DNA from: Thermococcus sp. JdFR-02
GTDB lineage: Archaea; Methanobacteriota_B; Thermococci; Thermococcales; Thermococcaceae
DNA length: 64,000 nucleotides
Assembly: GCA_002009975.1 (NCBI GenBank)
Contig: MTLP01000042.1
Location: forward strand, 96,001-160,000
Reading direction: 5' to 3'
The notes below the pieces were generated by a model. It did no database searches, had not been told where the DNA came from, and saw only the letters and a program-made list of their open reading frames with translations. Position 1 is the first letter of the stretch; each line of letters opens with the position of its first letter. Position numbers and translations under genes: made by a program. Positions 316-45,164 of this stretch are shown here, one piece after another.

Positions 316-324
316 AATATCACC

Positions 325-1326: not shown

Positions 1327-1455
1327 GCATCTACACCTCTACGATATTCATCGAAACGAACTAATAAATCTTTTCTATATTATCTTGATCCTTTGTTCAA
1401 TTTAAAAGCGAAAAGTTAAAATGTCTTCAATGAATTTTTAGACCTAGGTGGTAGT

Positions 1456-2898: not shown

Positions 2899-2958
2899 CT
2901 TTTCTCCTTTTTGAAAATTTTTAAATACTCTTCTTTGGATTTCTTTTTGGTGAAAGAA

Positions 2959-3780: not shown

Positions 3781-3783
3781 CCT

Positions 3784-4275: not shown

Positions 4276-4331
4276 TTTAACCCCTAAACTTAAAATGCAG
4301 TCTTAGGCTTTATAAATAATGAGGTGTTAAA

Positions 4332-4910
4332 ATGGAACACTACATCAAATCCTTTGATGAAAAGATGCTTTCCCTGAGCAATGCTCCTCATAATGGCGGG
4401 TTATTCAAAGCTAATGGCTTCTTTTTTATGCATGTCCCTAAAAACTACAATGGCAATTACAAAAGAGATTGTGCAGAATTTGAACGAAAATACAGCTTAA
4501 GGGATTTTGTGGGTTTTATGACTGCTGTAACGATTCCAAATGTGTTAAGCGTTGCAAAGCATAAAAATGTTGAGGCTTATATTACAGCAGGAATTACGAA
4601 TCCAGCAATTGTTGGAGAAGAGTGCAAATTTGAATATGGGACGATAAATATTGCTGTTCTTATAAAGGAAGGATTAACAATTGGTGCTTTGGCAAATGCA
4701 ATAATGACTGCAAGTGAAGCAAAAACATATACTCTTCTAAAGCTCGGTTATAATGCAACTGGCACAACAAGCGATGGCATTGGAATATTTGCCTTTGAGG
4801 GGGAACAAGAATGGGCTGGAACTGCAACGGGGATAGGGATTTCAATTGGAAAAGCTGTTAGGAAAGCTTTAGAAGAGAGTATAAGAAAGTGGGAGAAGAT
4901 AAGGAGTTAA
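4332..4910 (+). CDS. cbiZ: adenosylcobinamide amidohydrolase
   Basis: GFMTAV, ITAGITNP, GTINI, SEAK, ATGTTSDGI motifs. Confidence 0.85.
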   Translation: MEHYIKSFDEKMLSLSNAPHNGGLFKANGFFFMHVPKNYNGNYKRDCAEFERKYSLRDFVGFMTAVTIPNVLSVAKHKNVEAYITAGITNPAIVGEECKFEYGTINIAVLIKEGLTIGALANAIMTASEAKTYTLLKLGYNATGTTSDGIGIFAFEGEQEWAGTATGIGISIGKAVRKALEESIRKWEKIRS

Positions 4911-4940
4911 GCTTAAAAATTTCCTTCCTTAATTTCGATC

Positions 4941-6545: not shown

Positions 6546-6640
6546 GTTGTTTATTCATGCATCGCTATAGGATCGTCTGAACAATAAAAGAAAAAAAGAT
6601 TTATAAGGAAGTTCATCCAAATGACCGAAATGGTGATTTT

Positions 6641-7951
6641 ATGGTCCATCCTAATGACTTTATTTTAGAATATTTAGGCAAGCTTCCGACTCTGATTAGG
6701 CCATATAACAAGTTAAGGAAAAGATATCTCTATCATCAGCTTAAGGAGAAAATTGATTCTTATCTGTCGAACGGTCGCGAGGATACTATTATTATATCGG
6801 GTCTTAGAGGAACAGGCAAGACGACTATTTTAGCACAGCTCTATTTTTATGGAATATCAAGGATCAATCCAAATGAAGTTATCTATCTTTCTCTTGATGA
6901 GCTTCAGCTTCTTGGTCTCGACTTACTTGAGGTCCTTGATACCTATAAACGAATTATCAAGCCAGAGAGACCAATCTTGCTTCTTGACGAAGTTCAGTAT
7001 GATGAAAACTGGGATTTAAAGTTGAAAGTAATACATGACAAAATGAAGTTTTTAACAATAACGACAGGTTCTTCTGCAGTAAGACTTAAGGAAAGTCCAG
7101 ATTTAGCAAGGAGAGCGCTTCACAGGGAGCTTTATTCAATGACTTTCAGAGAATATTACAGTCTTAAAACAGGCAGAGAGATTCCAGAACTAATACACAA
7201 TATACTAAGCCTCAAAGAGGTGCAATTTTCTCCGATTGATGAAGAAGAGATAGTAAGATACATGAAAGTTGGTGGCTTACCCTTTGCTCTCGAGATGCCA
7301 GAATGGGAAGCTTATGAAAGAATACTTTCAATGCTTGACAGAATTATATATAGAGATCTCAGGGAAATTCACGATTTTGATGTTGAAACCCTTGATAAAG
7401 CTATTCATCTGCTTGTTCTTCTTGCAAATCCCAAAGGAGAGCGATTTAGCTATGAAAAATTGAGTAAAAGCTTAAATCTCGCAAAGGGTACTATTATAAA
7501 GCTTATTGATTCCCTTGAAAAGGCATCGCTAATACATAGAATACCAGCTCACGGCTCTATTGTTAAGGGCATTAGGAAGAGTCCAAAGGTAAAGTTTCTT
7601 GCTGTGCCAGTGAAATCAGCAATTCTTTACAAAATCGGTCTACTTGTAGATAGTGAGGAAATACTTGGCTCACTTCTCGAGGATATAGTTGCTTTCTACC
7701 TGTATCTATTGACCAAGTTGAGAATGGGTAGATTAAGCTATGAACCTGCTCGTGGAGGTGCCGACTTTGTGCTCGAACTTGGCGATGAGAAAATCGTTAT
7801 TGAAGTTGGGCTTGGAAAAGCAAAGAAATCACAGGTCAAAAGAACGATGGAGAGGATTGGTGCAGAGAAAGGAATTGTGGTTGGAAAAAAGTATGAAATA
7901 GGGGAAAGAGTAGCATTTTATCCATGGCAAATGTTTATAATGGGATTTTAG
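6641..7951 (+). CDS. AAA+ ATPase, probably with a DUF4143-type C-terminus
   Basis: Walker A GLRGTGKT, LLLDEVQ, TGSS, GGLP; C-terminal ADF..IEV. Confidence 0.8.
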   Translation: MVHPNDFILEYLGKLPTLIRPYNKLRKRYLYHQLKEKIDSYLSNGREDTIIISGLRGTGKTTILAQLYFYGISRINPNEVIYLSLDELQLLGLDLLEVLDTYKRIIKPERPILLLDEVQYDENWDLKLKVIHDKMKFLTITTGSSAVRLKESPDLARRALHRELYSMTFREYYSLKTGREIPELIHNILSLKEVQFSPIDEEEIVRYMKVGGLPFALEMPEWEAYERILSMLDRIIYRDLREIHDFDVETLDKAIHLLVLLANPKGERFSYEKLSKSLNLAKGTIIKLIDSLEKASLIHRIPAHGSIVKGIRKSPKVKFLAVPVKSAILYKIGLLVDSEEILGSLLEDIVAFYLYLLTKLRMGRLSYEPARGGADFVLELGDEKIVIEVGLGKAKKSQVKRTMERIGAEKGIVVGKKYEIGERVAFYPWQMFIMGF

Positions 7952-29918: not shown

Positions 29919-31088
29919 ATGGTAGAAAATTATACAGAATTGGGTATTTATGACAATGTCCTTCAAACAATTGGAAAGACCCCTATAATCAGGCTTAGAC
30001 AGATTGAGCAATATTTCAACGTTCAAAATGAGCTGTATGCTAAAATTGAGTTCTTCAACCCTGGAGGAAGCGTAAAGGATAGGATTGGAAAATATATGAT
30101 TGAAGGTGCTAAAAAAGAGGGAAAAATAGCTGAGGGTGCAGTGATAATTGAACCCACATCAGGGAACACTGGAGTAGGTTTAGCCTTGGTTGCAGCGGTT
30201 GAAGGCTACAAAACAGTGTTTACAATGCCAACAAAGATGAGCTTGGAGAAGGAGCTTCTCCTTGAAGCTTTAGGCGCTTTTGTGATTAGAACTCCCACAG
30301 CAGTCACTCCAAGCGATCCAAACTCATACTACAAAGTGGCTGAGGCTGTGAGAAATCTCATTTGGAAAAAGAAGAGGCCAGTGAGTATGGAGGAGCTTAA
30401 AGAGATAGTTGATTATGTGCAGAGGCTCGTTGATGAGGAGAGACTTGATGAGCTTAGGAGTATTCTTGAGGAAGAAGTTGAGGAAACACCCTATGCTTAC
30501 ATCCCAAACCAGTACTTTAACAAGTACAACCCAATAGCTCACTATGAAACAACTGCTAAAGAAATTTGGGAGCAGACTAAGGGAAAGATAGACTATCTTT
30601 TCGCAGGAATAGGCACTGGCGGAACTATAACTGGAATTGGACGCTATTTAAAGGAAAGGAAAGACGTCAAGATAATAGGTGTTGATCCAGTTGGCTCAAT
30701 ATACAATCTCGTGAAGAAGGGAATGAGTCTAGAGGAGGCCGTGAAAAAAGCTCATCCTTATTTAGTAGAAGGAATAGGAGAAGATTTGCTCCCAGAGACC
30801 GTTGATTTGAGCCTAGTTGATGATATAGTTGTTGTCAATGATCAGGAAGCTTTTGCAATGACACGCTTCTTGGCAAGGAAAGAAGGGATTTTAGTTGGAG
30901 GTTCTTCAGGAGCGGCGTTATATGGAACAATAAGATATCTCAAAGAGAAAGGGGTAAAAGGAAAGAAAGTCGTTATAATATTCCCAGACACTGGAAGGAA
31001 CTACCTAACAAAGATATTCAACAATAAATGGCTTCTTGAGAACGGTTTTGAAATCGATGATGAAAAAGTTCTGGAGGGATTGAGATGA
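29919..31088 (+). CDS. PLP cysteine synthase / cystathionine beta-synthase family
   Basis: KIEFFNPGGSVKDR, EPTSGNTG, GIGTGGT, EGIG, GGSSGA, PDTGRNY; extra helical insertion. Confidence 0.92.
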   Translation: MVENYTELGIYDNVLQTIGKTPIIRLRQIEQYFNVQNELYAKIEFFNPGGSVKDRIGKYMIEGAKKEGKIAEGAVIIEPTSGNTGVGLALVAAVEGYKTVFTMPTKMSLEKELLLEALGAFVIRTPTAVTPSDPNSYYKVAEAVRNLIWKKKRPVSMEELKEIVDYVQRLVDEERLDELRSILEEEVEETPYAYIPNQYFNKYNPIAHYETTAKEIWEQTKGKIDYLFAGIGTGGTITGIGRYLKERKDVKIIGVDPVGSIYNLVKKGMSLEEAVKKAHPYLVEGIGEDLLPETVDLSLVDDIVVVNDQEAFAMTRFLARKEGILVGGSSGAALYGTIRYLKEKGVKGKKVVIIFPDTGRNYLTKIFNNKWLLENGFEIDDEKVLEGLR

Positions 31089-32245
31089 AAGGCTTTTCAA
31101 CCAAGGCTATTCACGTCGGTGAAGATCCAAGTGAGATGCAGCATGGCGATGTTGTTTCCCCAATCCACCTTTCAACCACTTTCGCAAAGAAAAGTGTGAG
31201 AGAAGTTGAGGAAGGCTATGTTTACTCAAGGAGCGGCAACCCCACGAGGAATAACCTTGAGAAAAAATTAGCAGCACTTGAAAACGCTAAGTATGGGTTG
31301 GCTTTTTCCTCAGGGTTAGCGGCTGAATCTACAATACTCCTAGCATTACTAAAGAAAAGAGACCATGTTGTAGCTTTCGACGACCTCTATGGGGGAACAA
31401 AAAGGCTCTTCAACCAAGTTATGGAGCGCTTTGGGATTGAATTTACTTATGTAGATGCAAGAGAGCCTGAGAATGTTAGAAGTGCAATAAAAGAAAATAC
31501 AAAGATGATTTGGCTTGAAACTCCCACAAATCCCCTTTTAAAGCTTGCTGACATCAAGGCAATATCTGAGATTGCTCATGAGAGAGATTTAATCGTGGTT
31601 GTGGATAACACATTTGCGAGTCCCTACTTCCAAAATCCCCTCGACCTTGGGGCGGATATAGTGCTCCACAGCGTTACCAAATACTTAGGAGGACATTCCG
31701 ATGTTGTCGGAGGAGCCGTGATGGTAAATGACGATGAGATTTATGAAAAGTTGAAGTTCCATCAAAACGCAGTCGGTGCAATTTTGTCACCTTTTGACTC
31801 CTGGCTCGTTATGAGGGGCATTAAAACGCTTGCTGTTAGGATGGAGAGGCACGAGAAGAATGCTATGAGAATTGCGAAGTATCTGGAAGAGCATCCATTG
31901 GTTGAGAGGGTTTACTATCCAGGCTTGTCTTCACATCCACAGCACGAGCTCGCAAGGAGGCAGATGAGAGGATTTGGGGGAATGCTCTCATTCGAGCTTA
32001 AAGGTGGCCTTGAGGAGGCAGTAAAGTTCGTCGAGAGCTTGAAGATTTTTGCACTGGCTGAAAGCTTGGGAGGAGTGGAATCACTAATTGAGCTACCAGC
32101 TTTAATGACCCATGCCTCCCTTTCAAAAGAGGAAAGGGAGAAAGTTGGCATAAAAGACTCTCTTATCAGAGTTTCAGTTGGAATAGAAGATGTTGAGGAC
32201 TTAATTGAGGACTTGGAGAAAGGCTTCAGGGGGATAAAGCAATGA
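31085..32245 (+). CDS. cystathionine gamma-lyase/synthase (Cys/Met metabolism PLP family)
   Basis: YSRSGNPT, ETPTNP, DNTF, HSVTKYLGGHSD, AESLGGVES, IRVSVGIE. Confidence 0.92.
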   Translation: MKGFSTKAIHVGEDPSEMQHGDVVSPIHLSTTFAKKSVREVEEGYVYSRSGNPTRNNLEKKLAALENAKYGLAFSSGLAAESTILLALLKKRDHVVAFDDLYGGTKRLFNQVMERFGIEFTYVDAREPENVRSAIKENTKMIWLETPTNPLLKLADIKAISEIAHERDLIVVVDNTFASPYFQNPLDLGADIVLHSVTKYLGGHSDVVGGAVMVNDDEIYEKLKFHQNAVGAILSPFDSWLVMRGIKTLAVRMERHEKNAMRIAKYLEEHPLVERVYYPGLSSHPQHELARRQMRGFGGMLSFELKGGLEEAVKFVESLKIFALAESLGGVESLIELPALMTHASLSKEEREKVGIKDSLIRVSVGIEDVEDLIEDLEKGFRGIKQ

Positions 32246-32973
32246 TACCGAGCATGAGTGAGGTTAAAGAATTCTTGAAAAAGCTCGGCTTCGATGAGAG
32301 CTCAGCTAATGAGCTTATAGAGCAAATAGAGTACTTTGAAGGAGAAGCACCCCAAAGGGACGATATTGTGAGGGACTATCTTAGGGAGGAGTGCATAGAG
32401 ACAATAGTTGACGACATAGTTGAAGAAATCCTAAAGCTAAATAAGGAAAACATTAAGCTCTTAGACATTGCGGCTGGCTCAGGGTTTTTCACAGAGAGGG
32501 TTAAAAGGAAGCTTGAGGAAAGGAGAGTCAAAGTGGATGTTTATGCTTTGGATATAACTCCAAGCATGCTGAAAAGACTAAAAGAGAGAAAGATTACACC
32601 AATTTGGGGAGTTGCCGAGAAAATTAAAGAATCAATCAAAATAGCAAATGAGTATTACAACATAAATGTTCCTGAGAAATTTGATGCTGTAATTTCAACA
32701 TTAGCTTTGCATCACTTTTTAAAGCCTGAAAAAGTCTTAGAGAGCATGAAGGATGTCTTAAAAGAGAGTGGTAAGGTAATAATAGTTGATGTCCTCAAGC
32801 ATGAACATGAGGAATTTAAAGAGACTTTAAAGGATACACATCTCGGATTCACGCTGGAGGAAGTAAAAGAGATGGGTTCAAAGATATTTAAAGAAGTGAA
32901 AGCTAACTATATGGACGTCTACTGTGAAGTTGGCGACATAATAGTCGGATTATACAAAGCGGTGTTTGCTTAA
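32242..32973 (+). CDS. class I SAM-dependent methyltransferase
   Basis: LLDIAAGSG, LDIT..ML, FDAVIS..ALHH; ATGA overlap with the lyase gene. Confidence 0.85.
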   Translation: MIPSMSEVKEFLKKLGFDESSANELIEQIEYFEGEAPQRDDIVRDYLREECIETIVDDIVEEILKLNKENIKLLDIAAGSGFFTERVKRKLEERRVKVDVYALDITPSMLKRLKERKITPIWGVAEKIKESIKIANEYYNINVPEKFDAVISTLALHHFLKPEKVLESMKDVLKESGKVIIVDVLKHEHEEFKETLKDTHLGFTLEEVKEMGSKIFKEVKANYMDVYCEVGDIIVGLYKAVFA

Positions 32974-33527
32974 CTAGAGATCTTTCTTTTTTCTGCCACT
33001 TCTTTTAGCTTTAAGTGAGCTCTTAAAAGCCTCTTTTTGATGATGCGCTCTGCTATGAGGAGATTCAAGATTTTCCCCAGAAAACCATAGCGAAGGGAGT
33101 AATATACGCTCTCAATACTGAGGGTCATGTTATTCACAGGGATGAAGTAGTGTTCATACCGCAATTTCTTTAAAAATGTGTTCTCTTCCAGCATCTCTCC
33201 GGAATATAAGTAGTTTTCTTTAAAGTCAACAATCCGATATTTTACCCACTTTCCTGCTCCTTTTTCGCGGGTGTAATAGATCATCCCCCTCTCCAATTTT
33301 CCATCACCTTCAGATTTAAACTCATATTCCGGCCAGAACAACACGTGATTGCTGATGTTGGACACGAGAGAAAAAACTTCCTCCACTCTCGCGTCAATAA
33401 GCACCGCTATCTTGACACAATGAGAGAAACCTCGCGGTGGTTTACACTCTAAAAACTCAACATGTGTATTTTTAAGCCTCTTGACAATTAAGTGAATTCT
33501 CTGCTGGTCGTATTTTTTCGAGTTCAT
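32970..33527 (-). CDS. SRPBCC/START-like protein (true start uncertain)
   Basis: IDARVEEVF...SN....FWP pattern; C-terminal helix ending LKEVAE. Confidence 0.65.
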   Translation of the reverse strand: MNSKKYDQQRIHLIVKRLKNTHVEFLECKPPRGFSHCVKIAVLIDARVEEVFSLVSNISNHVLFWPEYEFKSEGDGKLERGMIYYTREKGAGKWVKYRIVDFKENYLYSGEMLEENTFLKKLRYEHYFIPVNNMTLSIESVYYSLRYGFLGKILNLLIAERIIKKRLLRAHLKLKEVAEKRKISS

Positions 33528-33628
33528 TTTCCACCGCCTTTATTCATCGAGCAGATTCATCTGTATTCTGATAAAATTAGAGGGATAACTTAAAAAAATG
33601 TAAAAAATATGCAAACAAATGGAAGGGA

Positions 33629-33919
33629 CTAACCTTCTAGAAGCTTTCTCTTCCTTTTTTCGTATTCTTCGTCGTCTATTTCTCCTCTTGCGTATCTCTC
33701 ATTAAGTATTTCTAGAGCAGTCTTTTTTGAAGCCGTTTTTGATGTTCCTTGTTCTAAAAGCCATTTAATTAATAGGACTACTCCCACAATTATTGCAACC
33801 CAGAATAGGAGCATAAATATAGCCCAGCCCCATCCTAAGAAGCCAAATCCCATCATATCGTGCCACCCCCATTCACCTTCTCCCATATGAACGAGATAAT
33901 CTCCAAAACTTTCAAACAT
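33629..33919 (-). CDS. SHOCT-domain membrane protein with His/Met N-terminus
   Basis: HMG..WHDMMG, one TM, ALEILNERYARGEIDDEEY SHOCT motif. Confidence 0.85.
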   Translation of the reverse strand: MFESFGDYLVHMGEGEWGWHDMMGFGFLGWGWAIFMLLFWVAIIVGVVLLIKWLLEQGTSKTASKKTALEILNERYARGEIDDEEYEKRKRKLLEG

Positions 33920-33967
33920 TATCTTTCACCATATATTACTCAGTTAGAAAACCTATAACCCTTATCT

Positions 33968-33982
33968 TTAACAAAGTGTAAA
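33968..33982. promoter_or_regulatory. CopR-type operator
   Basis: TTAACAAAGTGTAAA, 14/15 identical to the copA site, 49 nt from the SHOCT gene start. Confidence 0.7.
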
Positions 33983-34092
33983 AAATAAGGGACAAATTTT
34001 GGATATCTAAAAGATATAATGTTATATTGGCTGAGAGTTAACATGCGCAAAACTTAAAACTGAGTTATTATTATTCATAACTCGGTGATAAC

Positions 34093-34881
34093 ATGGCAAA
34101 GATACTGGCAAAGGTTAGTGAAAAGGATGTAACCTCAGCTATAGTCGATACTTTCTACAGCATGCTTAGAGAATACACAGAATCAGACGTTATAATCGTA
34201 GGCGCAGGACCGAGTGGATTAACCGCCGCTAAAGAGCTTGCAAAAGCAGGTAAAAAGGTCTTAGTTATAGAAAGGAACAACTATCTTGGAGGAGGCTTTT
34301 GGATCGGAGGATTCTTAATGAACAAGATAACAGTAAGGGCACCAGCACAAGAAGTGTTAGAAGAACTTGGTGTTCCATATGAGGAATACACAGAAGGTCT
34401 CTACGTTGCAGATGGTCCTCATGCATGTTCAAAGCTTATTGGAGCAGCATGTGACGCGGGAGTGAAGTTCCTCAATATGACGAGCTTTGATGATGTTGTT
34501 ATAAGAGATGGGAAAGTTGCAGGTGTTGTGGTTAACTGGACTCCAGTTCAAGCTTTGCCAAGGCAAATAACCTGTGTTGACCCAATAGCTCTTGAGTCAA
34601 AGATTGTAATAGACGCTACCGGACACGATGCCTTTGTTGCCAAGAAGCTCGAAGAAAAAGGGCTCCTGAAGACGAGAGGACACGGCTCAATGTGGGTTGA
34701 GGAGAGCGAAGACGCGGTTATAAATCACACAAGTGAAGTTTATCCAGGACTTATAGTTACGGGAATGGCAGTTTCTACAGTTTTTGGGCTTCCAAGAATG
34801 GGGCCAACCTTTGGAGGAATGCTCTTAAGCGGAAAGAGAGCTGCTGAAGTGGCTTTAGAGAAGCTTAAAGAACTGGAGTGA
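34093..34881 (+). CDS. thi4: thiazole synthase Thi4, cysteine type
   Basis: [41 protein letters not shown]. Confidence 0.93.
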
Positions 34882-34886
34882 TCCCA

Positions 34887-35537
34887 ATGAAGATTTACGT
34901 TGAAGATTCCTTTTGGGACTCCTTTTTATTTTTTGAGGGGATTAGAAAGTTTTTCAGGTTCTCTGTAGAATTTAATCCCTATAAATTTAAAGACCCCTAT
35001 TTTCTAGCTTACATAAGAGTGAGGAACCCAAATAAGAGAGAATTTTACGAGCCCTTTCCGGTGGAAGTCGAGAACGAAAAGAGGGGTCTCATAAAAGGGG
35101 TTATCTATGATGGTGTGGAACTGCTGAGATATTTCTCTCGAGATGTTGATATCTCTGAGCCGACAGTTTTGATAACTAACAGGCTTATAGCCACATTTGG
35201 AGAAGATGGGCGATATCACCTTAGAATGATTGTAATAGGTCCTGCAGCGATAATTTCACTTAAGGGAATACTCTATGCTCCAGCAAAGCCTCTCCAATAT
35301 TATATGATGCATTCATTTGGATTTGATGAGAAAATTGATGTAAAGGTTGACAAAGTGTTGAAAATGCTCCTTCTTCAGTTCTATGCTTATTTTAAGCATG
35401 AAGAGATCTTTTGCGAGAGCGAGGAATGCATGCTCCACAATTGCCATACAACGGAAGAGATAAAGAAAGTGAAAGGGCTGTGTGAGAGGCATAGGAAGAT
35501 GTTTGGAGATAGTGTAAATTTAAGAGGACTATCATAG
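34887..35537 (+). CDS. hypothetical protein, archaemetzincin-like Cys-rich C-terminus
   Basis: T.RLIATF...GRYHLR, APAKP, FC....C.LHN.H...LC.RH; no HExxH. Confidence 0.6.
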   Translation: MKIYVEDSFWDSFLFFEGIRKFFRFSVEFNPYKFKDPYFLAYIRVRNPNKREFYEPFPVEVENEKRGLIKGVIYDGVELLRYFSRDVDISEPTVLITNRLIATFGEDGRYHLRMIVIGPAAIISLKGILYAPAKPLQYYMMHSFGFDEKIDVKVDKVLKMLLLQFYAYFKHEEIFCESEECMLHNCHTTEEIKKVKGLCERHRKMFGDSVNLRGLS

Positions 35538-35820
35538 AATGTGTGAGAAAGGGTAACATAGAGTTAATGCTCGTTGCCATGATTTTAAAGATGCTACCTT
35601 TAGAATTAACTAAATTTTTAAGTTTTAAATACTACTCAAAGTTTTATTAAATTCATTTTCTTAGATTTTAGAAAAGAAGCTTTTTGAAGACTTACTTTTT
35701 TTTTAGAAATTTACTAACTTCAAATTATTAACTATAAGTTTACGAAAAATTTAAGTATAAGTACAACTTAAGAAAGTATGCTGAGGTAACGATGAAGCGG
35801 ATAAAAATGGAGGGGGCACT

Positions 35821-35937
35821 ATGCCAGAGCGTCAGGAAGAGGTGATAGTGTTAGAATTTGGAAATCCCTCCTTTGGGGAACCCAACTTTGTGTGCGGTTT
35901 ATGCGGATTTTGTGGCGCATTTCCACTTCCGACCTGA
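35821..35937 (+). CDS. RiPP precursor peptide, 38 aa, CxxCxxC core (absent from ORF track)
   Basis: SD GGAGGGGG then ATG; MPERQEEVIVLEFGNPSFGEPNFVCGLCGFCGAFPLPT*; ends 53 nt before the rSAM/SPASM gene. Confidence 0.85.
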   Translation: MPERQEEVIVLEFGNPSFGEPNFVCGLCGFCGAFPLPT

Positions 35938-35940
35938 GCC

Positions 35941-35956
35941 CCTTTTTATTTTTTAT
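35941..35956 (+). terminator. oligo-T terminator/attenuator between precursor and maturase
   Basis: CCTTTTTATTTTTTAT immediately after the precursor stop. Confidence 0.5.
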
Positions 35957-35990
35957 GTATTCAAAAAACCAGATAAAGGAGGGAAAAATC

Positions 35991-37292
35991 ATGGTGGATT
36001 ATACTTTATCAAAATATGTTATAGAAACCGATTATAATGGATACGTAGTCCTTTATCATCTAATCTATACTCATATAATAGGACTATCAAGAGAAACATA
36101 TTTGAATATCAAAACGGGAAAATCTGAAGAAGTCAAAGAAAAGACTCTCCAACAGCTAATTGATCTGGGCTTTCTTGTACCATCAACTGTTGATGAAAAG
36201 GAGATTGTAAAGCTTAAGATGAACTCATTAAAATACACTCCACTTCAGATGGGGATATTTGTAAGTCTAACATCTGCATGCAATCTTAAGTGTCCATATT
36301 GTTATCAATCCATGAGAAATGATACAAAATATCTTACTGTTGAAAAATGGAAGGTGTTATACAAGTACATTACTAAACATCAGGACATTGTAAAAGCTTT
36401 AGCAATAGCTCTATTTGGAGGAGAACCTCTCATGAACTATGATATTGCAAAAGAGATCTGTAAAGACGTTAAAAAGTTGAGAGTTAATGGGATTCATACT
36501 AGTATAGCTCTTGTGACTAATGGCACCCTATTTACAAAGGAAGTTGGGGAAGAACTCTCAGATTACTTAGAGAATGTTCAGATAACAATAGATGGTATGC
36601 AAGGAGAACATGACAAACTTAGACCTCTTCCAAATGGCAAAAGTAGTTTTGAAATAATAATTAAAAATCTAATTGATAACATAGATCTTTATAAAGATAG
36701 AATTGTCCTTCGTTCGAATATCACTGAGGAAAACATAGAATCAGTTAAAACTTTATTAAAATACCTAAAAGAAGAAGTTGGGATTATGAACAAGATAAAA
36801 GAGGTTGATTTCAGGTATATCTATCCCTCTCAAAATGATATATTTGATGGTGCAATATATCGATTAGACAGTCATGTTTCAAAAATGTTGCTAGAGATGT
36901 ATAAATATGCCACAGAGCTTGGCTATAAAATTGCCAATCCCTTGCTATCTGTCGCACCTTGTATGGCATCTCATGCATTTAGTTTCGCAGTGGATGAAAA
37001 TCTGAACGTATACAAATGTGGAGGATTCCTATATTCTACTCCCGATGGGTATATCTCTCCTGATGGAAAGTTGGTAATAACGAATCCTAGATGGTACAAA
37101 TTAATAAACTTCGAACCTGTCTGTGTTAATACATGTAAGTTCGCCCCTGTGTGCTATGGAGGATGTAAATGGATGGGAATTATGAATAATTTTAAAGGTA
37201 CATGCAACATTGAGCACTTCAAGGATCTCAAAGAGTTCTTGAGGATATACGTTAATTCAAATTACAAAAGACAACTGGAGGTAATGCAATGA
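35991..37292 (+). CDS. radical SAM/SPASM peptide maturase with N-terminal RRE-like domain
   Basis: Start ATG 35991 after GGAGGG; N-terminal SKY..VVLYH..QQLIDLGFLV; CNLKCPYC; FGGEP; SPASM PC...YKC...C..TCKFAPVCYGGC...C. Confidence 0.9.
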   Translation: MVDYTLSKYVIETDYNGYVVLYHLIYTHIIGLSRETYLNIKTGKSEEVKEKTLQQLIDLGFLVPSTVDEKEIVKLKMNSLKYTPLQMGIFVSLTSACNLKCPYCYQSMRNDTKYLTVEKWKVLYKYITKHQDIVKALAIALFGGEPLMNYDIAKEICKDVKKLRVNGIHTSIALVTNGTLFTKEVGEELSDYLENVQITIDGMQGEHDKLRPLPNGKSSFEIIIKNLIDNIDLYKDRIVLRSNITEENIESVKTLLKYLKEEVGIMNKIKEVDFRYIYPSQNDIFDGAIYRLDSHVSKMLLEMYKYATELGYKIANPLLSVAPCMASHAFSFAVDENLNVYKCGGFLYSTPDGYISPDGKLVITNPRWYKLINFEPVCVNTCKFAPVCYGGCKWMGIMNNFKGTCNIEHFKDLKEFLRIYVNSNYKRQLEVMQ

Positions 37293-38212
37293 AAAAAATT
37301 ATCAATATTGAAAATCTCACTAAAATTTATCCAAATGGCAAAAGAGCTAATGATAATATAACAATGTTTGTAAGAAAAGGGGAAATAGTGGGCTTAATCG
37401 GACCAAATGGTGCAGGAAAAACCACACTGATACGGCAGATTCTAGGACTTTTAAAACCAACAAAAGGTAAGATAGAAGTTATGGGAATCAACGTTTCAAA
37501 GAAACCAGAAAAAATTAGGGGGATTGTTGGATATGTCCCCCAATACCCCTTATATTATCCCTCCTTAACTGTTGAGGAAATTCTACACTACATTTTGCTC
37601 ATGAAAGGCATTAAAGATAAAAAAGAGCTTGAAGAAAAACTCAATAATGTTTTGAAATTAACAAACCTCGATTCAGCAAGAAAATTCTATGGTTACCAAC
37701 TTTCCGGAGGGATGATGAAATCTCTTCTTTTATCTATGGCATTAATACAAGAACCCCAGCTTTTAATTTTAGATGAACCAACTAGCATGGTCGACATAAA
37801 TACTAAGTTTAGAATATGGGGAACTATACAGAAAAACAAAAGAAAAGGAGTTCTTTTAGCAAGCCATGACCTAAATGAAGTAAAGAGAATTTGTGATAGA
37901 ATATACGTTATTATCAACGGAAAAATTATTGCAAGTGGAACAACTGGAGAGATTTCAAAGCTATTAAAAACGCCAACAGAGATAAGACTGATTCCTCAGG
38001 AGACCCAAGAGTTTAAGCACCTCATGGAAGAGCTTAACATCATGGGTGAAAAAAAAGGAAATATTTATGAAATGGCTTTTGAAGATCTTGAAAGTGCTTT
38101 AAATGCCATTCAACACATTTTGAAGACTTCGGGGATTGAATATCTCGAGGTGAATTCTCCATCATTCGAAAAAGCAATAATGACGCTCATTGGAGGTGGA
38201 AATAATGATTAA
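37289..38212 (+). CDS. ABC exporter ATP-binding subunit (RiPP cluster 1)
   Basis: GPNGAGKTT, LSGGM, LDEPT, SH; ATGA overlap with the rSAM gene. Confidence 0.92.
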   Translation: MKKIINIENLTKIYPNGKRANDNITMFVRKGEIVGLIGPNGAGKTTLIRQILGLLKPTKGKIEVMGINVSKKPEKIRGIVGYVPQYPLYYPSLTVEEILHYILLMKGIKDKKELEEKLNNVLKLTNLDSARKFYGYQLSGGMMKSLLLSMALIQEPQLLILDEPTSMVDINTKFRIWGTIQKNKRKGVLLASHDLNEVKRICDRIYVIINGKIIASGTTGEISKLLKTPTEIRLIPQETQEFKHLMEELNIMGEKKGNIYEMAFEDLESALNAIQHILKTSGIEYLEVNSPSFEKAIMTLIGGGNND

Positions 38213-38915
38213 GGCTTTGATCTTAATGGAACTTAAAGGCATGAGGATTTACATGTTGCAGATAATTGTAAGCCTGTTTGTAGTACCCTTGTCCTTTCTG
38301 GCGCTTATCCTTCTGAATTCAAAGGAGGCTCCAAGTACTTTCAAGGCATATCTCATTTCGGGATTTATAGTAATATCTTTTGTTGGGTTGTTGCTACTAA
38401 TGCTGTCATTTAGAGTTAGTACAGTGTTTGAACCGAGGTTTTTAGAGCTATATTCAACCTTGCCGGTGAGTATTGAAAAAGTTGTATTATCAATGTTCCT
38501 AGCGTATGTTCTTTTGGGGGTACCCCAAACACTTATTGCTTTACTTCTGCTTATTAAATATTCCAGCACCATTAACATCCCACTTCTTCTGACATCATTT
38601 GCATTAATTGCTGGGGAACTTGGAAGTATTGCAATAGTTTTGGGAGCAACAATTAGGAACCCATATAAGGTTCAGGCATTCACAAGTATTTTGCCATGGA
38701 TACTAACACTACTTTCACCAGCATATTACAAATCATCCTCCAAAATATTGCTGTTGAATCCAATAACTCATCTTCTAAACGTTCTAAGGGCGTCTTTAGC
38801 ACTTGAAAAACTTTCCATGACCTCTTTAGCATTTTCTGTGGTTTTAACTATTGTGTTGTGTATCTATACTGATAAACAACTGAGGAAACCCTATATGCTA
38901 GAAAAACCCTTTTAA
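38205..38915 (+). CDS. ABC-2 type permease (RiPP cluster 1)
   Basis: About six TM, ELYSTLPVS, SPAYY, LNPIT ABC-2 motifs. Confidence 0.85.
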   Translation: MIKALILMELKGMRIYMLQIIVSLFVVPLSFLALILLNSKEAPSTFKAYLISGFIVISFVGLLLLMLSFRVSTVFEPRFLELYSTLPVSIEKVVLSMFLAYVLLGVPQTLIALLLLIKYSSTINIPLLLTSFALIAGELGSIAIVLGATIRNPYKVQAFTSILPWILTLLSPAYYKSSSKILLLNPITHLLNVLRASLALEKLSMTSLAFSVVLTIVLCIYTDKQLRKPYMLEKPF

Positions 38916-38958
38916 GTTTCTCCTTTTTATTTACATTGTGGGATAACCCATGTGAAGA

Positions 38959-39340
38959 TTGCTCTCTAAAAGAGCATGTGTGCTGTGTCGTGCCGTTATT
39001 GAACCTGCCAATATTGAATCCAGCTCCTGTCCAACTTGGCACGCTCAGCATGGCGTTTTCTGTAATGACGGGATTATTCTTAAGTGGGCCTGTGAGCAGG
39101 GAAAAAGCGTTTGGGATTTTAGAGATCCTGCTCTCGGCGCCAGTCTGTCCCGCTGAGATTCTGTTCTCAAAAGCCATGGGGACTTCCGCATACGGCTTTA
39201 TCGTGATAACCATTGGGCTTGACTCAGGTGCTTTGTATTATAAGCACTTTGATATGGCAAAGGGGTTACCTTCTTCATAGCGTTTTTTGCCCCTCTTTAC
39301 CTCCCCGAATACTATCATGGCAATCACCTTTAATTAAGCA
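38959..39340 (+). pseudogene. ABC permease remnant
   Basis: REKAFGILEILLSAPV..EILFSKA ABC-2 signature in a truncated ORF. Confidence 0.6.
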
Positions 39341-39435
39341 CAATCTTTTCACCCAACCTTTTCCCTAGTCCTTTTATTATTGCAAGCGAAGCCAAGAATG
39401 CACCCGCGGACAGCAACAGGGAAATTGCTAATGCC

Positions 39436-40354
39436 ATGGATAAAGAAAGTCCAACCCCAAAAAACTCAAAAACGTTAGCAAAAGTATAAAAGGCAGGAAA
39501 GTTTTAACTGGAGTGAGTTTCGCATCAAAAAGTGGGGAAGTACACGCTTACTTGGGACACAATGGGGCTGGAAAGACTACTACATTCCGACTTATTCTGG
39601 GGATATTAGTCCCCGATGAAGGGTGCATTAGTGTGTTAGGAGTTAATCCTGCGGAAAATCCTGAGGTTAAGGCCCAAATTGGCTACCTCCCAGAGTATGA
39701 CCCTTTGTATCCAGACTTGACTGTTTGAGACAACTTAAAACGCTACGCTTTACTGAAAGGAGTTTATGATGAGAAGGAGCTACGGGACTTGTTGGAACTC
39801 TTTGAGATTAAAGAGTATGCTAAAAAAGAAGGTTTCAACCCTCTCAAACGGGACTCAGCGGAGGGTTGCAATAGCGAGGACTTTTATTGGAAGGCCCAAA
39901 ATCCTCCTTATAGACTGAAACAATGAAGGATTTGGACCCAGAATGGCGCTTGAGATTTAAGCACTTCTTAGAAAAGTACGTGAAAAAGGAGAAGGCCGCG
40001 GCTTTGTTCTCCACACATATTCTGAGCGATGTTGATGAGATATGTGAAAAGCTGACGGTGATAAAAGATGGGCGTGTATTATTCCCCGGAAGCTTAGAAG
40101 AACTTAAAAAGCATTTTTCATTTGAAGAGAGTGTTCTCATCAAAGTGCAGGAAGTCAGAAAGGCATTAGAGCTACTTAAACAATTCGGTTATTCTCCAAA
40201 ACTCACAAACAACTTTATCCTACTTAAAAATGCAGAACCGCCTGAAATTAACAAGCTCTTAGTAAAGAACGGAATAACAGTTGAAGAAATAAAAAAGAAG
40301 GGACTCACTTTAGAAACATTATACTCAACACTCTATGGCAGACATAAACATTAG
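39436..40354 (+). pseudogene. ABC ATPase pseudogene
   Basis: GHNGAGKTT, in-frame TGA at 39726-28, frameshift near the A-run ~39822-27, LSNGTQRRVAIAR, disrupted Walker B, FSTHILSDV. Confidence 0.85.
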
Positions 40355-40406
40355 CAGATTAACAAATGCTGAAATATTAAAAAGAAAAAATTCAGAGACT
40401 CAGCCG

Positions 40407-42527
40407 TCAAACTTTCAAAAACCTCGCATTTATTGCAACTATAACTGTGCTTAGGCTCATTAACAAAGCACCTACCGCTGGGCTTAATAGTATCCCATAG
40501 TTGTAAAGCGTTCCCGCTGCCAGAGGAATCGCAAATGTGTTGTAGCCTGTTGCCCATGCCAAGTTCTGCACCATTTTTCCATAGGTTGCCCTTGCAAGGT
40601 GTATTGCCGTTATGACGTCTCTTGGATCGTTTTTAACCAAGATTATGTCAGCACTTTCTATTGCCACATCAGTTCCTGCTCCAATTGCTACCCCAACGTC
40701 CGCTTGAATCAAAGCAGGAGCATCGTTTATTCCATCTCCAACCATTGCCACGATGAAGCCTTTTTCTTGAAGCTCCTTAACTTTCTCCGACTTTTGATGG
40801 GGCAAGACCTCTGCAAAGTAGCCATCCAGGCCAAGCTCCTCGGCAACCCACTTTGCAACTTTAGCGTTGTCTCCTGTGAGCATGTAAGCTTTAATTCCCA
40901 TCTCGTGGAGTCTCTTTATAGCTTCTCTCGATTCTGGTCTTATCTTATCGGCTAAAGCTAAAGCACCAGCTAGCTTTCCATCGATAACTAAAAACACCAC
41001 TGTCTTTCCTTGCTCCAAGACCTTATTAACACGCTCATCCTCTTTCCAGAGTCCGTTTTCCTTAAGAAAGCCAGGACTTACAACAAGAATCTCTTTGCCG
41101 TTAATAACTCCCTGAACACCTTTGCCAGGTAGTACTTTAGATTGTTCAACCTCATAGAGCTCAAGTCCAAGTTCCTTTGCTTTTTCCACTATCCCCTGTG
41201 CTATTGGATGTGATGAATGTCCCTCAAGGGCAGCTGCATATTTTAAAATCTCATTGTCTTCAAGTTCATCCAATGGAATTATATCCGTTACCTCAAACTT
41301 TCCTTCGGTCAAAGTTCCTGTCTTGTCAAAAACAACTACCTGAACATCTTTTGCCCTCTCAAAGGCTTCTCTGTTCCTAATGAGTATTCCCTTCCTCGCT
41401 GATATTGACGTCGACACTGAGACCACTAGAGGAACAGCCAGTCCCAAAGCGTGGGGGCATGTAATTACCATCACAGTGACCATTCTCTCGAGAGCGAACA
41501 CAAAGGGCTTCCCTAAGTAGAGCCAAGTACCGAGAGTCGCACTTCCAGCGGTTATTGCAATGAGTGTAAGCCAAAACGCTGCTCTATTGGCTAAATCTTG
41601 AGTCCTTGACCTTGTCTCTTGTGCCTGTCTTACAAGCTCGACGACCTGCATGAGGTAGGTGTCCTTACCCGTCTTCTCAATCCTTACTTTAATCGAGCCC
41701 TCTAAGTTTATTGAACCACCAATAACAATGGCACCTGGTTTCTTATAGACGGGCTTTGACTCACCGGTAAGCATCGCCTCGTTTACGCTCGTCTCTCCCT
41801 CAATTATGATGCCATCAGAAGGTATCTTCTCGCCGGGCTTGACCAAAACTATATCTCCCTTCTTGAGCTCGCTCACTGGAACATCTTTTATTCCCTCAGG
41901 AGTTATTAGGTGAGCATCAGTTGGCATGAGCTTTATTAGCTCCTCTAAAGCCCTTGAAGCACCGAGAACAGAGCGCATCTCTATGTAATGCCCCAAAAGC
42001 ATGATGTCAATAAGCGTTGCAAGCTCCCAATAGAACGTCTTTCCGGGCAAACCAAAGGTTACTGCAGCACTGTAGGAAAAGGCAACCGTGATTGCCAAAG
42101 CTATTAGCGTCATCATTCCTGGGGTTTTCTTCTTAAATTCATCTCTCATTCCTGTTAGGAACGGCTTTCCGCCGTAGAAGTAGACCACCGCCGACAGTGT
42201 GAAGAGGACATACCTATCACCAGGGAAAGTGAATGTAAAGCCAAGGAACTTTTGAATCAGCGGAGATAGGAGCAGTATCGGAATCGTAAGTATGGTAGAA
42301 ATTATAAATCTCCTCTTGAAGTCCTCCATCATCATTTTATGGTGCTCTGCATGCGAATGCTTGTGCTCTCCGTGCTCATGATTTATGTGTTCATGCTTTT
42401 CTTCCTCCATCTCGTGTCTATGCATTTCATGATGTTCATGCTTTTTGCTTTCCTCATGTTGATGCATTCTCATTTCTTTGTGTTCTTCATGCATGTGCTC
42501 TTTGTGTATTTCTTTTTCATCTTCCAT
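40407..42527 (-). CDS. copB: CopB-type P1B-3 copper ATPase with His-rich N-terminus
   Basis: His/Met/Glu-rich N-terminus, TGES, CPHALG, DKTGT, GYN, MSLST. Confidence 0.94.
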   Translation of the reverse strand: MEDEKEIHKEHMHEEHKEMRMHQHEESKKHEHHEMHRHEMEEEKHEHINHEHGEHKHSHAEHHKMMMEDFKRRFIISTILTIPILLLSPLIQKFLGFTFTFPGDRYVLFTLSAVVYFYGGKPFLTGMRDEFKKKTPGMMTLIALAITVAFSYSAAVTFGLPGKTFYWELATLIDIMLLGHYIEMRSVLGASRALEELIKLMPTDAHLITPEGIKDVPVSELKKGDIVLVKPGEKIPSDGIIIEGETSVNEAMLTGESKPVYKKPGAIVIGGSINLEGSIKVRIEKTGKDTYLMQVVELVRQAQETRSRTQDLANRAAFWLTLIAITAGSATLGTWLYLGKPFVFALERMVTVMVITCPHALGLAVPLVVSVSTSISARKGILIRNREAFERAKDVQVVVFDKTGTLTEGKFEVTDIIPLDELEDNEILKYAAALEGHSSHPIAQGIVEKAKELGLELYEVEQSKVLPGKGVQGVINGKEILVVSPGFLKENGLWKEDERVNKVLEQGKTVVFLVIDGKLAGALALADKIRPESREAIKRLHEMGIKAYMLTGDNAKVAKWVAEELGLDGYFAEVLPHQKSEKVKELQEKGFIVAMVGDGINDAPALIQADVGVAIGAGTDVAIESADIILVKNDPRDVITAIHLARATYGKMVQNLAWATGYNTFAIPLAAGTLYNYGILLSPAVGALLMSLSTVIVAINARFLKV

Positions 42528-42595
42528 ATTACTCACCACCATTAGGTTTTAATTCTCAAACTTTAATAACATTTTTAACCAAAAGAATGAAAAAG

Positions 42596-43085: not shown

Positions 43086-45164
43086 TTATTTTAAAATCCT
43101 TATTGCATTGAACACCGCTATTAATGCAACACCAACATCTGCAAACACTGCCTCCCACATTGTAGCTTCTCCAAGAATTCCAAGGCTTATGAAAGCCAGC
43201 TTAACCCCAAGAGCAAAGATTATGTTCTGCCACACTATCCTTTGTGTCTTTCTTGCGGTTTTTATCCCTGTAGGCAACTTTGAAGGCTTGTCGTCCATTA
43301 TAACTATATCTGCTGTTTCAATAGCGGCATCGCTTCCTAAAGCACCCATTGCAACTCCCACATCAGCTCTTGCAATAACGGGTGCATCGTTTATTCCATC
43401 GCCCACAAAAACTATTGTATCATTTGAACCCTTTTTCTTTTCAAGCTCTTCAATAACTCTCACTTTGTCCTCTGGTAGCAGCTCGGCATAAAACTCATCC
43501 AAGCCTATTTGTCTTGCTATCTCCTCTGCAACATCTTTGCTGTCCCCAGTTACCATTATAACCTTTTTAACACCTAAGCGCTTTAGTTCTCTAACAGCTT
43601 TTGGAGCATCTTCTTTTATCTCGTCAGATATAACTATGTAGCCCGCGTATTTTCTGTTAACGACAACATGAGCAACGGTCCCCTTTACGTGGCATGTATC
43701 ATGTTCAATATCGAATTTGTGCAGTAACCTATCATTTCCAACCATTATCTCTGTTTTATCAATTTTTGCCCTAACGCCATGTCCTGTTATCTCTTCATGT
43801 TCTTTTATTTGGGCTTCGTTGATTTCTTTTCCATAGGCTTCTTTTATTGCCTTTGCAATTGGATGATTTGAATGTGCTTCTGCTAAAGCTGCAAATTTCA
43901 AAATTTCCTCTTCGCTGAAACCGTTCCTCGTTTCTATTTTTGTAACTTTAAAGACACCCTTTGTTAGCGTCCCAGTTTTATCAAAAGCCACAATTGTTGC
44001 TTTACTAAGCGCATCAAGAAAGTTTGATCCCTTAACTAGTATTCCTTCCCTAGCAGATTTTCCAATTCCTCCAAAGTAGCCGAGAGGTATTGAAAGCACC
44101 AAAGCGCAAGGGCATGAGATTACCAAGAGCACTAAAGCCCTGTAGAGCCAATCAGAAAAAGATTCTCCAAAGGCTAGTGGTGGAATTAAAGCAATAAGTG
44201 CAGCTAATCCCACAACCGCTGGGGTGTAGTAGTGAGCAAACCTTGTGATAAACTTCTCTGTTTTAGCCTTTCTTGCACTTGCATTTTCCACAAGCTCTAA
44301 AATCCTCGAAATAGTTGACTCTTTAAGCTCTTTCGTAACTTTGACTATCAGAAGACCGCTTAAGTTTACCATCCCTGATAAGATTTCCCCTCCTTCCTTT
44401 ACAGTTCTTGGAACGCTCTCTCCGGTTAAAGCCGATGTATCAACATTTGAACTTCCCTCAATGATGATCCCATCAACGGGAACTCTCTCACCGGGCTTTA
44501 TGATTATTATGTCACCAACTTTAAGCTCCTCAGGCTTGACTTTGACTATCTTATCCCCCACTTTGAGGTTTGCATACTCTGCCTTTAAAGCTAATAAAGC
44601 CTTAATAGAACGTCTTGACCTGTTAATGGCTAAATCTTGGAAGAATTCACCAACAGTGTAAAACAGCATAACTCCCACAGCTTCTGGATATTCTCGAATT
44701 GCAAATGCACCAAGCGTGGCTATAGCTATGAGAAAGTTCTCATCAAAGACATTTCCATGTATGGAGTTGACAAAAGCGTTCCTTAACACTTTCCAACCCA
44801 CTAAGAGGTAGCTCACAACAAATATTCCAAGCACAAAGGCATTGTCGTAGTTGTAGTAGTACCTCAGAACTATTCCAATGATGAACAGCAAAAGTGAAGG
44901 GATTATGAAGTGGAGCATCTTCCTCGGGTCGTCGTGGTCATGGTGGTGATGGTCATGTTCGTGCTCGTCCTTCTCAATGACCTTAACTCCCGGCTCAACC
45001 CTCTTTATTATCTCCTTAGCCTTCTCGATGTCTCCCTCTATCACAGCTTCCTTGGTGGCAAAGTTTACCATAGCAAACTCAAAGCCTTCTTTTTTTAATG
45101 CTTCTTCAATTTCATAGGCACAGCTAGCACAGTCAAGACCTTCTAATTTGAGCTTCTTTGGCAT
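43086..45164 (-). CDS. cadA: Zn/Cd/Pb-exporting P1B-2 ATPase
   Basis: GLDCASC HMA, His-rich linker, SCPCAL, DKTGT, VK in TM7, ADVG. Confidence 0.93.
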   Translation of the reverse strand: MPKKLKLEGLDCASCAYEIEEALKKEGFEFAMVNFATKEAVIEGDIEKAKEIIKRVEPGVKVIEKDEHEHDHHHHDHDDPRKMLHFIIPSLLLFIIGIVLRYYYNYDNAFVLGIFVVSYLLVGWKVLRNAFVNSIHGNVFDENFLIAIATLGAFAIREYPEAVGVMLFYTVGEFFQDLAINRSRRSIKALLALKAEYANLKVGDKIVKVKPEELKVGDIIIIKPGERVPVDGIIIEGSSNVDTSALTGESVPRTVKEGGEILSGMVNLSGLLIVKVTKELKESTISRILELVENASARKAKTEKFITRFAHYYTPAVVGLAALIALIPPLAFGESFSDWLYRALVLLVISCPCALVLSIPLGYFGGIGKSAREGILVKGSNFLDALSKATIVAFDKTGTLTKGVFKVTKIETRNGFSEEEILKFAALAEAHSNHPIAKAIKEAYGKEINEAQIKEHEEITGHGVRAKIDKTEIMVGNDRLLHKFDIEHDTCHVKGTVAHVVVNRKYAGYIVISDEIKEDAPKAVRELKRLGVKKVIMVTGDSKDVAEEIARQIGLDEFYAELLPEDKVRVIEELEKKKGSNDTIVFVGDGINDAPVIARADVGVAMGALGSDAAIETADIVIMDDKPSKLPTGIKTARKTQRIVWQNIIFALGVKLAFISLGILGEATMWEAVFADVGVALIAVFNAIRILK

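Follow-up and report, generated by a model that had tools for sequence, protein, structure and literature searches.

Layout of the cassette

The stretch of DNA analyzed here, called the window below, comprises 64,000 nucleotides of Thermococcus sp. JdFR-02 (contig MTLP01000042.1, positions 96,001 to 160,000 of the forward strand). A four-gene cassette occupies 35821-38915 (+) of the window and encodes a precursor peptide, an RRE-rSAM-SPASM maturase (RiPP recognition element, radical S-adenosylmethionine and SPASM domains, where RiPP stands for a peptide made by the ribosome and modified after translation), and the ATP-binding subunit (ATPase) and ABC-2 permease of an ATP-binding cassette (ABC) transporter. 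Its genes, signals and boundaries are as follows.

35510..40406, no strand: 4.9-kb indel relative to the related genome G003, holding the cassette and a decayed second ABC transporter (38936-40354)
35750..35759, plus strand: TATA-like box tttaagtata, a possible archaeal promoter of the precursor gene, read from the sequence
35809..35816, plus strand: Shine-Dalgarno site GGAGGGGG of the precursor gene, 4 nt 5' of the ATG
35821..35937, plus strand: precursor peptide gene, 38 aa, MPERQEEVIVLEFGNPSFGEPNFVCGLCGFCGAFPLPT (from the list of open reading frames, alignment, codon changes and profile)
35943..35954, plus strand: oligo-T tract T5-A-T6 in the precursor-maturase gap, directly after the TGA
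35976..35983, plus strand: Shine-Dalgarno site AAGGAGGG of the maturase gene, from the sequence
35991..37292, plus strand: RRE-rSAM-SPASM maturase gene, 433 aa (from Pfam, NCBIfam, alignment, solved relatives and an AlphaFold2 model)
37289..38212, plus strand: DrrA-like ATP-binding subunit of the ABC transporter; the gene start overlaps the end of the maturase gene (from Pfam/NCBIfam and homologues)
38205..38915, plus strand: ABC-2 type permease; the open reading frame is listed from TTG 38190, and ATG 38205 is the likely start

The maturase stop and the ATPase start overlap as ATGA, and the end of the ATPase gene overlaps the start of the permease gene; these overlapping ends of the three large genes fit a single operon. 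As listed, the maturase reading frame opens at GTG 35892, and ATG 35991 was taken as the start because of the N-termini of homologues and the AAGGAGGG site at 35976-83. For the permease, ATG 38205 was preferred over TTG 38190 as the probable start because of the homologue in locus L002. GC content amounts to 35.0% in the cassette and 37.9% in the window, an uninformative difference.

An earlier note on this DNA had described a 38-aa open reading frame (ORF) with a strong Shine-Dalgarno site, then an oligo-T tract and an RRE-rSAM-SPASM enzyme with a full Cys set, followed by ABC transporter genes. All of these were found: the ORF at 35821-35937 (+) with GGAGGGGG 4 nt before its ATG, the T5-A-T6 tract, an enzyme with 3+7 invariant Cys, and an ATPase gene (37289-38212) with an ABC-2 permease gene running to 38915. 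The note's assignment of these genes to a RiPP-type cassette of precursor, maturase and transporter was borne out by the gene content and by the homologous loci described below. We consider it likely that the four genes make up a self-contained RiPP cassette whose product is a Cys-cross-linked small peptide, with a transporter that would serve for its export or for protection of the producer.

Conservation of the precursor beside the maturase

Maturase homologues (48-51% identity, E≤1e-50) were present in 6 of 97 Thermococcaceae genomes, the window's own included, and all six loci have a small ORF of like plan just upstream, for example MEELIVLERGSASFDEPNFCGVFCNPVKGGDNPN. To these six loci were added the six best matches in named genomes: a Thermotogae metagenome-assembled genome (MAG), Alkaliphilus transvaalensis, a Bacteroidales MAG, two Desulfurococcaceae MAGs and a Dehalococcoidia contig, one of the set being truncated at its contig end (the Dehalococcoidia contig). 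The groups covered are thus Thermococcaceae, Desulfurococcaceae, Thermotogota, Bacillota, Bacteroidota and Dehalococcoidia. In 12 of 12 loci, the homologous maturase has a homologous small ORF just upstream; the peptide, whose absence beside homologous rSAM enzymes the earlier note had named as a reason for doubt, is conserved there.

A DNA pattern for EPNFCGxFCNP picked up two metagenome contigs, both of which carry a downstream maturase (48% identity) and ABC genes. The peptide motif gave no matches in viral contigs. Pieces identical to the window, 35759-36038 among them, were found in metagenome DNA contigs of runs X2 and X3, and a variant in run X4 keeps the precursor frame, with two synonymous changes plus E7A and I9V (codons read by eye). 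A joint 37645>40654 in metagenome contigs was disregarded, as one side consists of only 23 letters within a conserved ABC motif. Stretches of the window left uncovered in X2-X4 are uninformative. The patchy spread (6/97 Thermococcaceae genomes, and bacteria) fits what would be expected of an accessory trait, for example an antagonistic or signalling peptide.

The maturases of the Bacteroidales MAG (L015) and of P0011, which bears an Ignavibacteria label, are near-identical (tree branches 0.04 and 0.03). A binning error may lie behind one of the two labels.

The precursor peptide family

The precursor consists of a leader with a VIVLEFG strand, a 5-residue spacer, an EPNF box and the core VCGLCGFCGAFPLPT. 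In an alignment of 11 peptides, V10, L11, G14, E20, N22, F23, C25, F30 and C31 were invariant, and the family consensus reads hhhLExG-x5-EPNF-C(G)xFC(NPV). The pattern hhhLExG-x4-7-E[PS]xF-x0-3-C fitted 48 of 51 unique peptides, with a spacer of 5, rarely 7, residues. Among the 48 peptides parsed in this way, the core holds two Cys in 29, three in 15, four in 3 and one in 1. The window peptide, with the core CGLCGFCG, belongs to a three-Cys CxxCxxC subgroup, and further three-Cys members with CGLCxFC cores exist. Across the wider family S, G, Q or F also occur at position N22, and the residue following the last Cys is highly variable; the two Phe-Cys pairs are the steadiest feature.

Codon differences between related precursors were mostly synonymous (synonymous to non-synonymous 9:1 for L094/L096 and 9:3 for L093/L097). 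A profile built from the 11 peptides and run on 1.84 billion representative proteins gave 42 matches at E≤1e-3; 41 were short peptides (29-90 aa). Because the neighbouring loci, the motif search, the codon changes and the profile search agree, the 38-codon ORF is confirmed, at the level of sequence, as a real gene. A non-coding RNA in place of the peptide gene was rejected on the basis of an Rfam scan of 35400-36100, which gave no matches at E≤1.

When the 11 precursors were compared with NCBIfam, no peptide model matched at E≤10, and Pfam gave one chance match at 0.11 and nothing else. Of ten peptides looked up in a collection of 15 billion proteins, five occur there, and the sole name they carry is "hypothetical protein". 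The exact window peptide is absent from that collection, in keeping with its description in the earlier note as unannotated. By these searches, the EPNF-Cys peptides are an uncurated precursor family, without a Pfam or NCBIfam model, common to archaea and bacteria.

Two details of the earlier description stand less well. The window sequence does show the tandem FGNPS/FGEPN repeat (10 of 15 bases agree, as read by eye), but it is not conserved, as none of the 50 other family peptides has it; the corresponding segment has the same length in relatives (GSSGFDEPNF, GAFGFNEPNF). The conserved region of the peptide extends upstream of the proposed core, to EPNF.

The maturase

The maturase matches the Pfam families Radical_SAM (64 bits against a cut-off of 29.5) and Fer4_12. 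Its CxxxCxxC motif (C97/C101/C104) is invariant in 20 of 20 aligned homologues, as are seven C-terminal Cys (C324, C343, C378, C382, C388, C392 and C405) in the aligned homologues, and the stretch from C324 to C405 aligns with the SPASM part of CteB. This 3+7 pattern fits a putative radical-SAM cluster plus a SPASM domain for two auxiliary clusters. The highest NCBIfam scores all belong to peptide maturases: the geopeptide model TIGR04280 (175.1 bits, cut-off 400), the CefB model NF038107 (158.6, cut-off 600), TIGR04463 (151.7, cut-off 525), the PapB model NF047865 (107.9, cut-off 340) and the SCIFF maturase model TIGR03974 (81.3, cut-off 425). Models of cyclophane formers also scored (YhhB 71, DynA 60 and GrrM/OscB 56 bits), as did the RumMC sactipeptide maturase model (53.8, cut-off 720).

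The best solved relative by sequence was CteB (E 6.5e-31), followed by ChlB, TigE, anSME and SkfB (SkfB at 2.5e-14). The AlphaFold2 model of the maturase had a mean predicted local distance difference test score (pLDDT) of 89.1 and a predicted template modelling score (pTM) of 0.88. Its residues 4-81 form three strands and three helices, an RRE-like N-terminal domain; Pfam PqqD gave no match to the maturase at E≤0.01. Foldseek matched the model at full length to CteB, TigE and SuiB with template modelling (TM) scores of 0.51-0.66, those for CteB being 0.63-0.66.

The 28 rows of a maximum-likelihood tree were the window's own enzyme, 11 loci of the family, 4 of the outgroup and 12 of the proteins P0007-P0024. 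Fragments P0006, P0012, P0016 and P0018, the near-duplicates P0013 and P0014, and P0023 were omitted. The maturase family is a separate clade (support 100/99) that excludes the CefB-like maturases of other Thermococcaceae. The seven rows of Thermococcaceae type group together (100/100), the window enzyme branching first among them, and the Desulfurococcaceae rows fall outside this group. Two outgroup rows sit on long branches. The backbone has seven open forks, and no donor for a cross-domain transfer can be named.

Predicted docking of the leader

The predicted complex of precursor and maturase scored 0.73, the best of three controls scoring 0.02. A score of 0.73 is reached by 58 of 80 solved complexes and by 2 of 110 mismatched pairs. 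The complex runs share at least 52% of their contacts, with a partner pLDDT of at least 48. In the model, leader residues 5-16 contact enzyme residues 17-36, 48-59 and the C-terminal helix, and the leader lies along enzyme strand 26-33. Core residues 23-25 and 28 contact enzyme residues 316, 324-325, 392 and 394, beside two SPASM Cys. Both the invariant V10-L11-(E12)-G14 and the fixed length of the spacer are consistent with the model. Note that it should be taken as a likeness rather than as binding, because like complexes (CteB-CteA and SuiB-SuiA) have already been solved.

Expression signals

The precursor gene may have its promoter in the TATA-like box at 35750-35759. In the five other Thermococcaceae loci, A/T boxes (atttataa) stand 45-60 nt upstream of the precursor start, and the same five have a Shine-Dalgarno site, GGAGGTGAT, at the same position as in the window; GGAGG is common to all six. 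A T-rich tract follows the precursor stop in 6 of 6 Thermococcaceae loci, and at the equivalent position the bacterial loci L014 and L015 have a hairpin terminator. The oligo-T tract at 35943-35954 is likely to act as a partial archaeal terminator. A terminator of the type appropriate to each domain, placed between precursor and enzyme, would fit a highly expressed precursor with partial read-through into the genes that follow.

The transporter and the adjoining DNA

The transporter is of the DrrAB/ABC-2 type. In 11 of the 12 loci, the gene directly downstream of the maturase encodes an ATPase homologue, and a permease homologue is present in 10; locus L016 has neither, and the sequence of L094 ends before the permease would be reached. 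Directly after the cassette, 38936-40354 holds remnants of a second ABC transporter, with a fragment of an ABC-2 membrane protein at 38936-39280 and an ATPase split over 39513-39728, 39766-39918 and 39923-40354. In a tblastn comparison, residues 2-118 of the cassette ATPase aligned to 39459-39794 with 39% identity.

This broken neighbor, together with the missing NP[VI] tail of the window peptide, would fit a decaying or silent remnant at this locus, that is, a real family of which the divergent window peptide is no longer a substrate. We regard such decay as most unlikely, since all nine invariant peptide positions and all invariant enzyme Cys are kept, the three large genes are open and overlapping, other three-Cys members with CGLCxFC cores exist, and the X4 variant keeps the frame (two synonymous changes, E7A and I9V).

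Proposed working and chemistry

For a functional RiPP cassette, the following course is proposed. The precursor would be transcribed from its own promoter, with the oligo-T tract probably letting only part of the transcripts continue through the maturase and transporter genes. Residues E6-G14 of the leader (EEVIVLEFG) are predicted to dock as an added beta-strand on the RRE domain of the maturase, and the fixed-length spacer would then position EPNF-Cys close to the first auxiliary Fe-S cluster, within the active site. There, a 5'-deoxyadenosyl radical is most likely used to join the sulfur of C25 and C31 (and of C28 in the three-Cys subgroup) to a carbon of a nearby residue, with E20, N22, F23 and F30 as candidate acceptors, which would give one to three very small thioether rings. 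The DrrAB-like ABC-2 transporter would either export the product or protect the producer. Because the cassette encodes no protease, the leader would be cut by a host protease or retained.

A thioether cross-link through the invariant Cys is the likeliest chemistry, by analogy with relatives of the maturase such as CteB and the PapB family. The family core usually has two Cys, so a "triply bridged" product would be peculiar to the three-Cys subgroup. It is unlikely, on our estimate, that the maturase instead installs a different modification (a C-C cyclophane from an invariant Phe, or another radical rearrangement) with the Cys serving other roles. The Phe residues F23 and F30 equal C25 and C31 in invariance, cyclophane formers score too (YhhB 71, DynA 60, GrrM/OscB 56 bits), and TigE and SuiB are among the top structural matches. 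The curated models that score higher, however, are all of maturases for Cys-rich or thioether peptides, CteB, which heads the solved relatives by sequence, forms a thioether, and the residue at F30+2 in the window peptide is Gly and thus lacks the beta-carbon that a three-residue cyclophane would need.

Several observations weigh against a thioether-forming export cassette. The maturase falls under the curated cut-off of every named maturase family. Its RRE-bearing SPASM structural neighbors catalyze different reactions, with CteB forming a thioether, TigE acting as a cyclopropylglycine synthase (cyclopropyl) and SuiB as a Lys-Trp cross-linker (C-C). The precursor fold in the predicted complex is uncertain, with pLDDT below 50 in at least one run. 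The window peptide itself is divergent, in that the common C-terminal NP[VI] is missing and an extra residue precedes the first Cys. For the transporter, export and immunity are not separable by sequence.

The upstream DUF6775 gene, whose product is a "probable metallopeptidase", was rejected as leader peptidase: it occurs in 3 of 26 related genomes, including G003, which has no cassette. A tblastn scan of 18 loci (upstream flanks of about 1.3-4 kb) did not find it. The gene, at 34878-35537 of the window, overlaps the Thi4 stop, and one of its three genome copies is broken (G005, with an internal TAA).

Metal genes in the neighborhood

The earlier note had suggested, from the Cu/Cd/Hg genes of the region, that the peptide might be a metallophore. 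In that case, it would serve as a metallophore or metal chaperone whose CxxCxxC thiols bind Cu, Cd or Hg, with the ABC pump exporting the complex or the free peptide. Two heavy-metal P-type ATPase genes lie just downstream, at 40407-42542 and 43086-45164 (the latter with an HMA domain), as do a DUF302 gene and an ArsR gene; an ORF at 55326-56726 was judged MerA-like by eye, and the window core is CGLCGFCG. These observations are set against the arrangement in G003, where window 30598-35509 (Thi4 and DUF6775) aligns to positions 1-4923 of locus L099 (89%) and window 40407-42560 (the first P-type ATPase) aligns to 4969-7122 (91%), only 46 bases after the upstream block. Because the metal pump gene and the Thi4/DUF6775 genes adjoin in G003 without the cassette, the nearness of the cassette to these already neighboring metal genes is attributed to an indel rather than to a shared operon. 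The indel junctions have no direct repeat of 9 or more bases.

Elsewhere, the 10 nearest flanking ORFs of L014-L017 match no metal-transport family, and the flanks of the two Desulfurococcaceae loci show only generic divergent ArsR-type helix-turn-helix genes. A dedicated radical-SAM enzyme also implies chemically altered Cys, and 29 of the 48 parsed family cores have only two Cys. We therefore set the metallophore idea aside as very unlikely.

A possible link to iron involves another member of the family. Locus L096 encodes a protein identical to the homologous maturase BAD86349.1, named for Thermococcus kodakarensis KOD1. By accession arithmetic, BAD86349.1 is presumably TK2160 and Tk2161-2162 presumably the ABC genes beside it. 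According to the available part of one study, six ABC operons of T. kodakarensis, Tk2161-2162 included, were raised 72 h after induction with Fe(II) (PMC12827226). The iron-stress response described in that part of the source covers 149 genes, many of them for transporters (PMC12827226), which counts against reading this rise as support for a metallophore. TK2160 itself was not mentioned in the literature searched, with figures and supplements outside the search.

The MerA-like ORF (55326-56726, minus strand) encodes a 466-aa protein resembling pyridine-nucleotide disulfide oxidoreductases, mercuric-reductase-like by eye, and ends in ...CCVL.

Comparison with known systems

A close likeness is to CteB/SCIFF (thermocellin, Clostridia). 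The two have the RRE-rSAM-SPASM architecture in common, CteB is the best solved relative by both sequence and fold, a short Cys-bearing precursor likewise lies directly upstream of the enzyme, and in the predicted complex the leader lies as a strand on the RRE. However, the cassette maturase reaches 81 bits against the SCIFF cut-off of 425, and no SCIFF or other peptide model matches the cassette precursors at E≤10. The SCIFF precursor has six Cys in about 45 residues, whereas the cassette precursors have 2-3 Cys in a core of 12-17 residues. Unlike CteB/SCIFF, the cassette includes genes for an ABC-2 transporter.

In CxxxD, PapB joins Cys to Asp. The PapB/freyrasin type (NF047865) belongs to the same broad SPASM maturase clade (108 bits, below the cut-off of 340), and a comparably short spacing of Cys and acceptor is plausible in the cassette peptide (E-x3-C). 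The cassette peptide, however, has no CxxxD repeat, and its candidate acceptor lies N-terminal to the Cys, in reversed orientation. TIGR04280, NF038107 and TIGR04463 are the highest-scoring curated models, yet all lie far below their cut-offs (400, 600 and 525). Geopeptide, Cys-every-fifth, TIGR04280 and TIGR04463 yielded no text in the literature searched, and the chemistry is apparently unpublished.

CefB-like maturases of other Thermococcaceae (about 28% identity to the cassette maturase) adjoin Cys-rich precursors with a similar leader, FEIIEKGS. These maturases score 350 bits against the CefB cut-off of 600, and long Cys-rich peptides are encoded at L004 1179-1364, L005 (minus strand, oriented 1160-1432) and L019 1597-1764. 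FEIIEKGS.EG resembles the VIVLExG strand, and the L019 peptide has VVIIEYG. The resemblance suggests that a wider clade of maturases may have this leader motif in common. No family match at E≤1 was obtained for the three Cys-rich peptides of the CefB-like loci or for the L019 peptide.

Two archaeal systems were compared by their published descriptions. Subtilosin-like sboA/albA/albC clusters occur in Thermococcus celer and T. nautili and are likewise proposed as cross-domain acquisitions, according to the part of the preprint available (bioRxiv 10.64898/2026.07.27.741052). As described there, these Thermococcus clusters likewise encode a small peptide with Cys, along with an rSAM enzyme, an ABC ATPase and a membrane protein. 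Their peptide, however, is of subtilosin length and of a hairpin type, with three Cys and distant Phe/Thr acceptors, whereas the cassette peptides are far shorter and have no hairpin half. They come from other species and are set apart from the cassette by that description. The cassette maturase reaches only 54 bits with the RumMC sactipeptide maturase model.

In Methanococcus voltae, CrpC/CrpA involves an archaeal SPASM rSAM enzyme with a predicted RRE that installs ranthionine links (PMC13692751, available part). By the description in that source, the CrpC substrate is a large Cys-rich protein rather than a peptide of 30-40 aa (PMC13692751). The motif strings EPNFC and NFCGVFC were not found in the literature text searched (figures and supplements lay outside the search), and other strings gave unrelated matches.

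The architecture and, probably, the logic of the cassette are those of ranthipeptide systems of the CteB/SCIFF and PapB types, which makes the cassette, as judged from its sequence, a new family within a known kind.

Other features of the window

A separate small-protein/radical-SAM pair lies on the minus strand at 51062-52880. It comprises an 87-aa Ala/Val-rich ORF (52617-52880) and, downstream of it, a 384-aa radical-SAM protein (51463-52617) and a 134-aa ORF (51062-51466), and ABC genes are nearby at 53224-55021. This is presumably the first RiPP cluster of the earlier note, which called the cassette the second.

Significance

From the cassette emerges a compact and uncurated family of precursors, found in both prokaryotic domains, whose recognition strand is clear, whose spacer is fixed and whose core is very short. 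The tempting link to metal resistance is removed as unsupported. Genetic tools exist for T. kodakarensis, and the homologous copy in this tractable archaeon (L096) makes the chemistry and the role directly testable.

Archaeal radical-SAM peptide clusters have been predicted by genome mining. The sole characterized archaeal example in the literature searched acts on a large protein, as far as the available part of its source describes (PMC13692751). A bolder proposal, which we offer as speculation and think rather improbable, is that the EPNF-Cys peptides are a new minimal-size RiPP class, with one or two tiny rings closed by an undescribed link (from the Cys sulfur to the neighboring invariant Phe, or to the EPNF Glu or Asn N-terminal to the Cys), exchanged between hyperthermophilic archaea and anaerobic bacteria and induced under metal or sulfide stress, for which the rise of Tk2161-2162 after Fe(II) induction is a hint. 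If this were true, the product would be the first characterized small radical-SAM peptide natural product of archaea.

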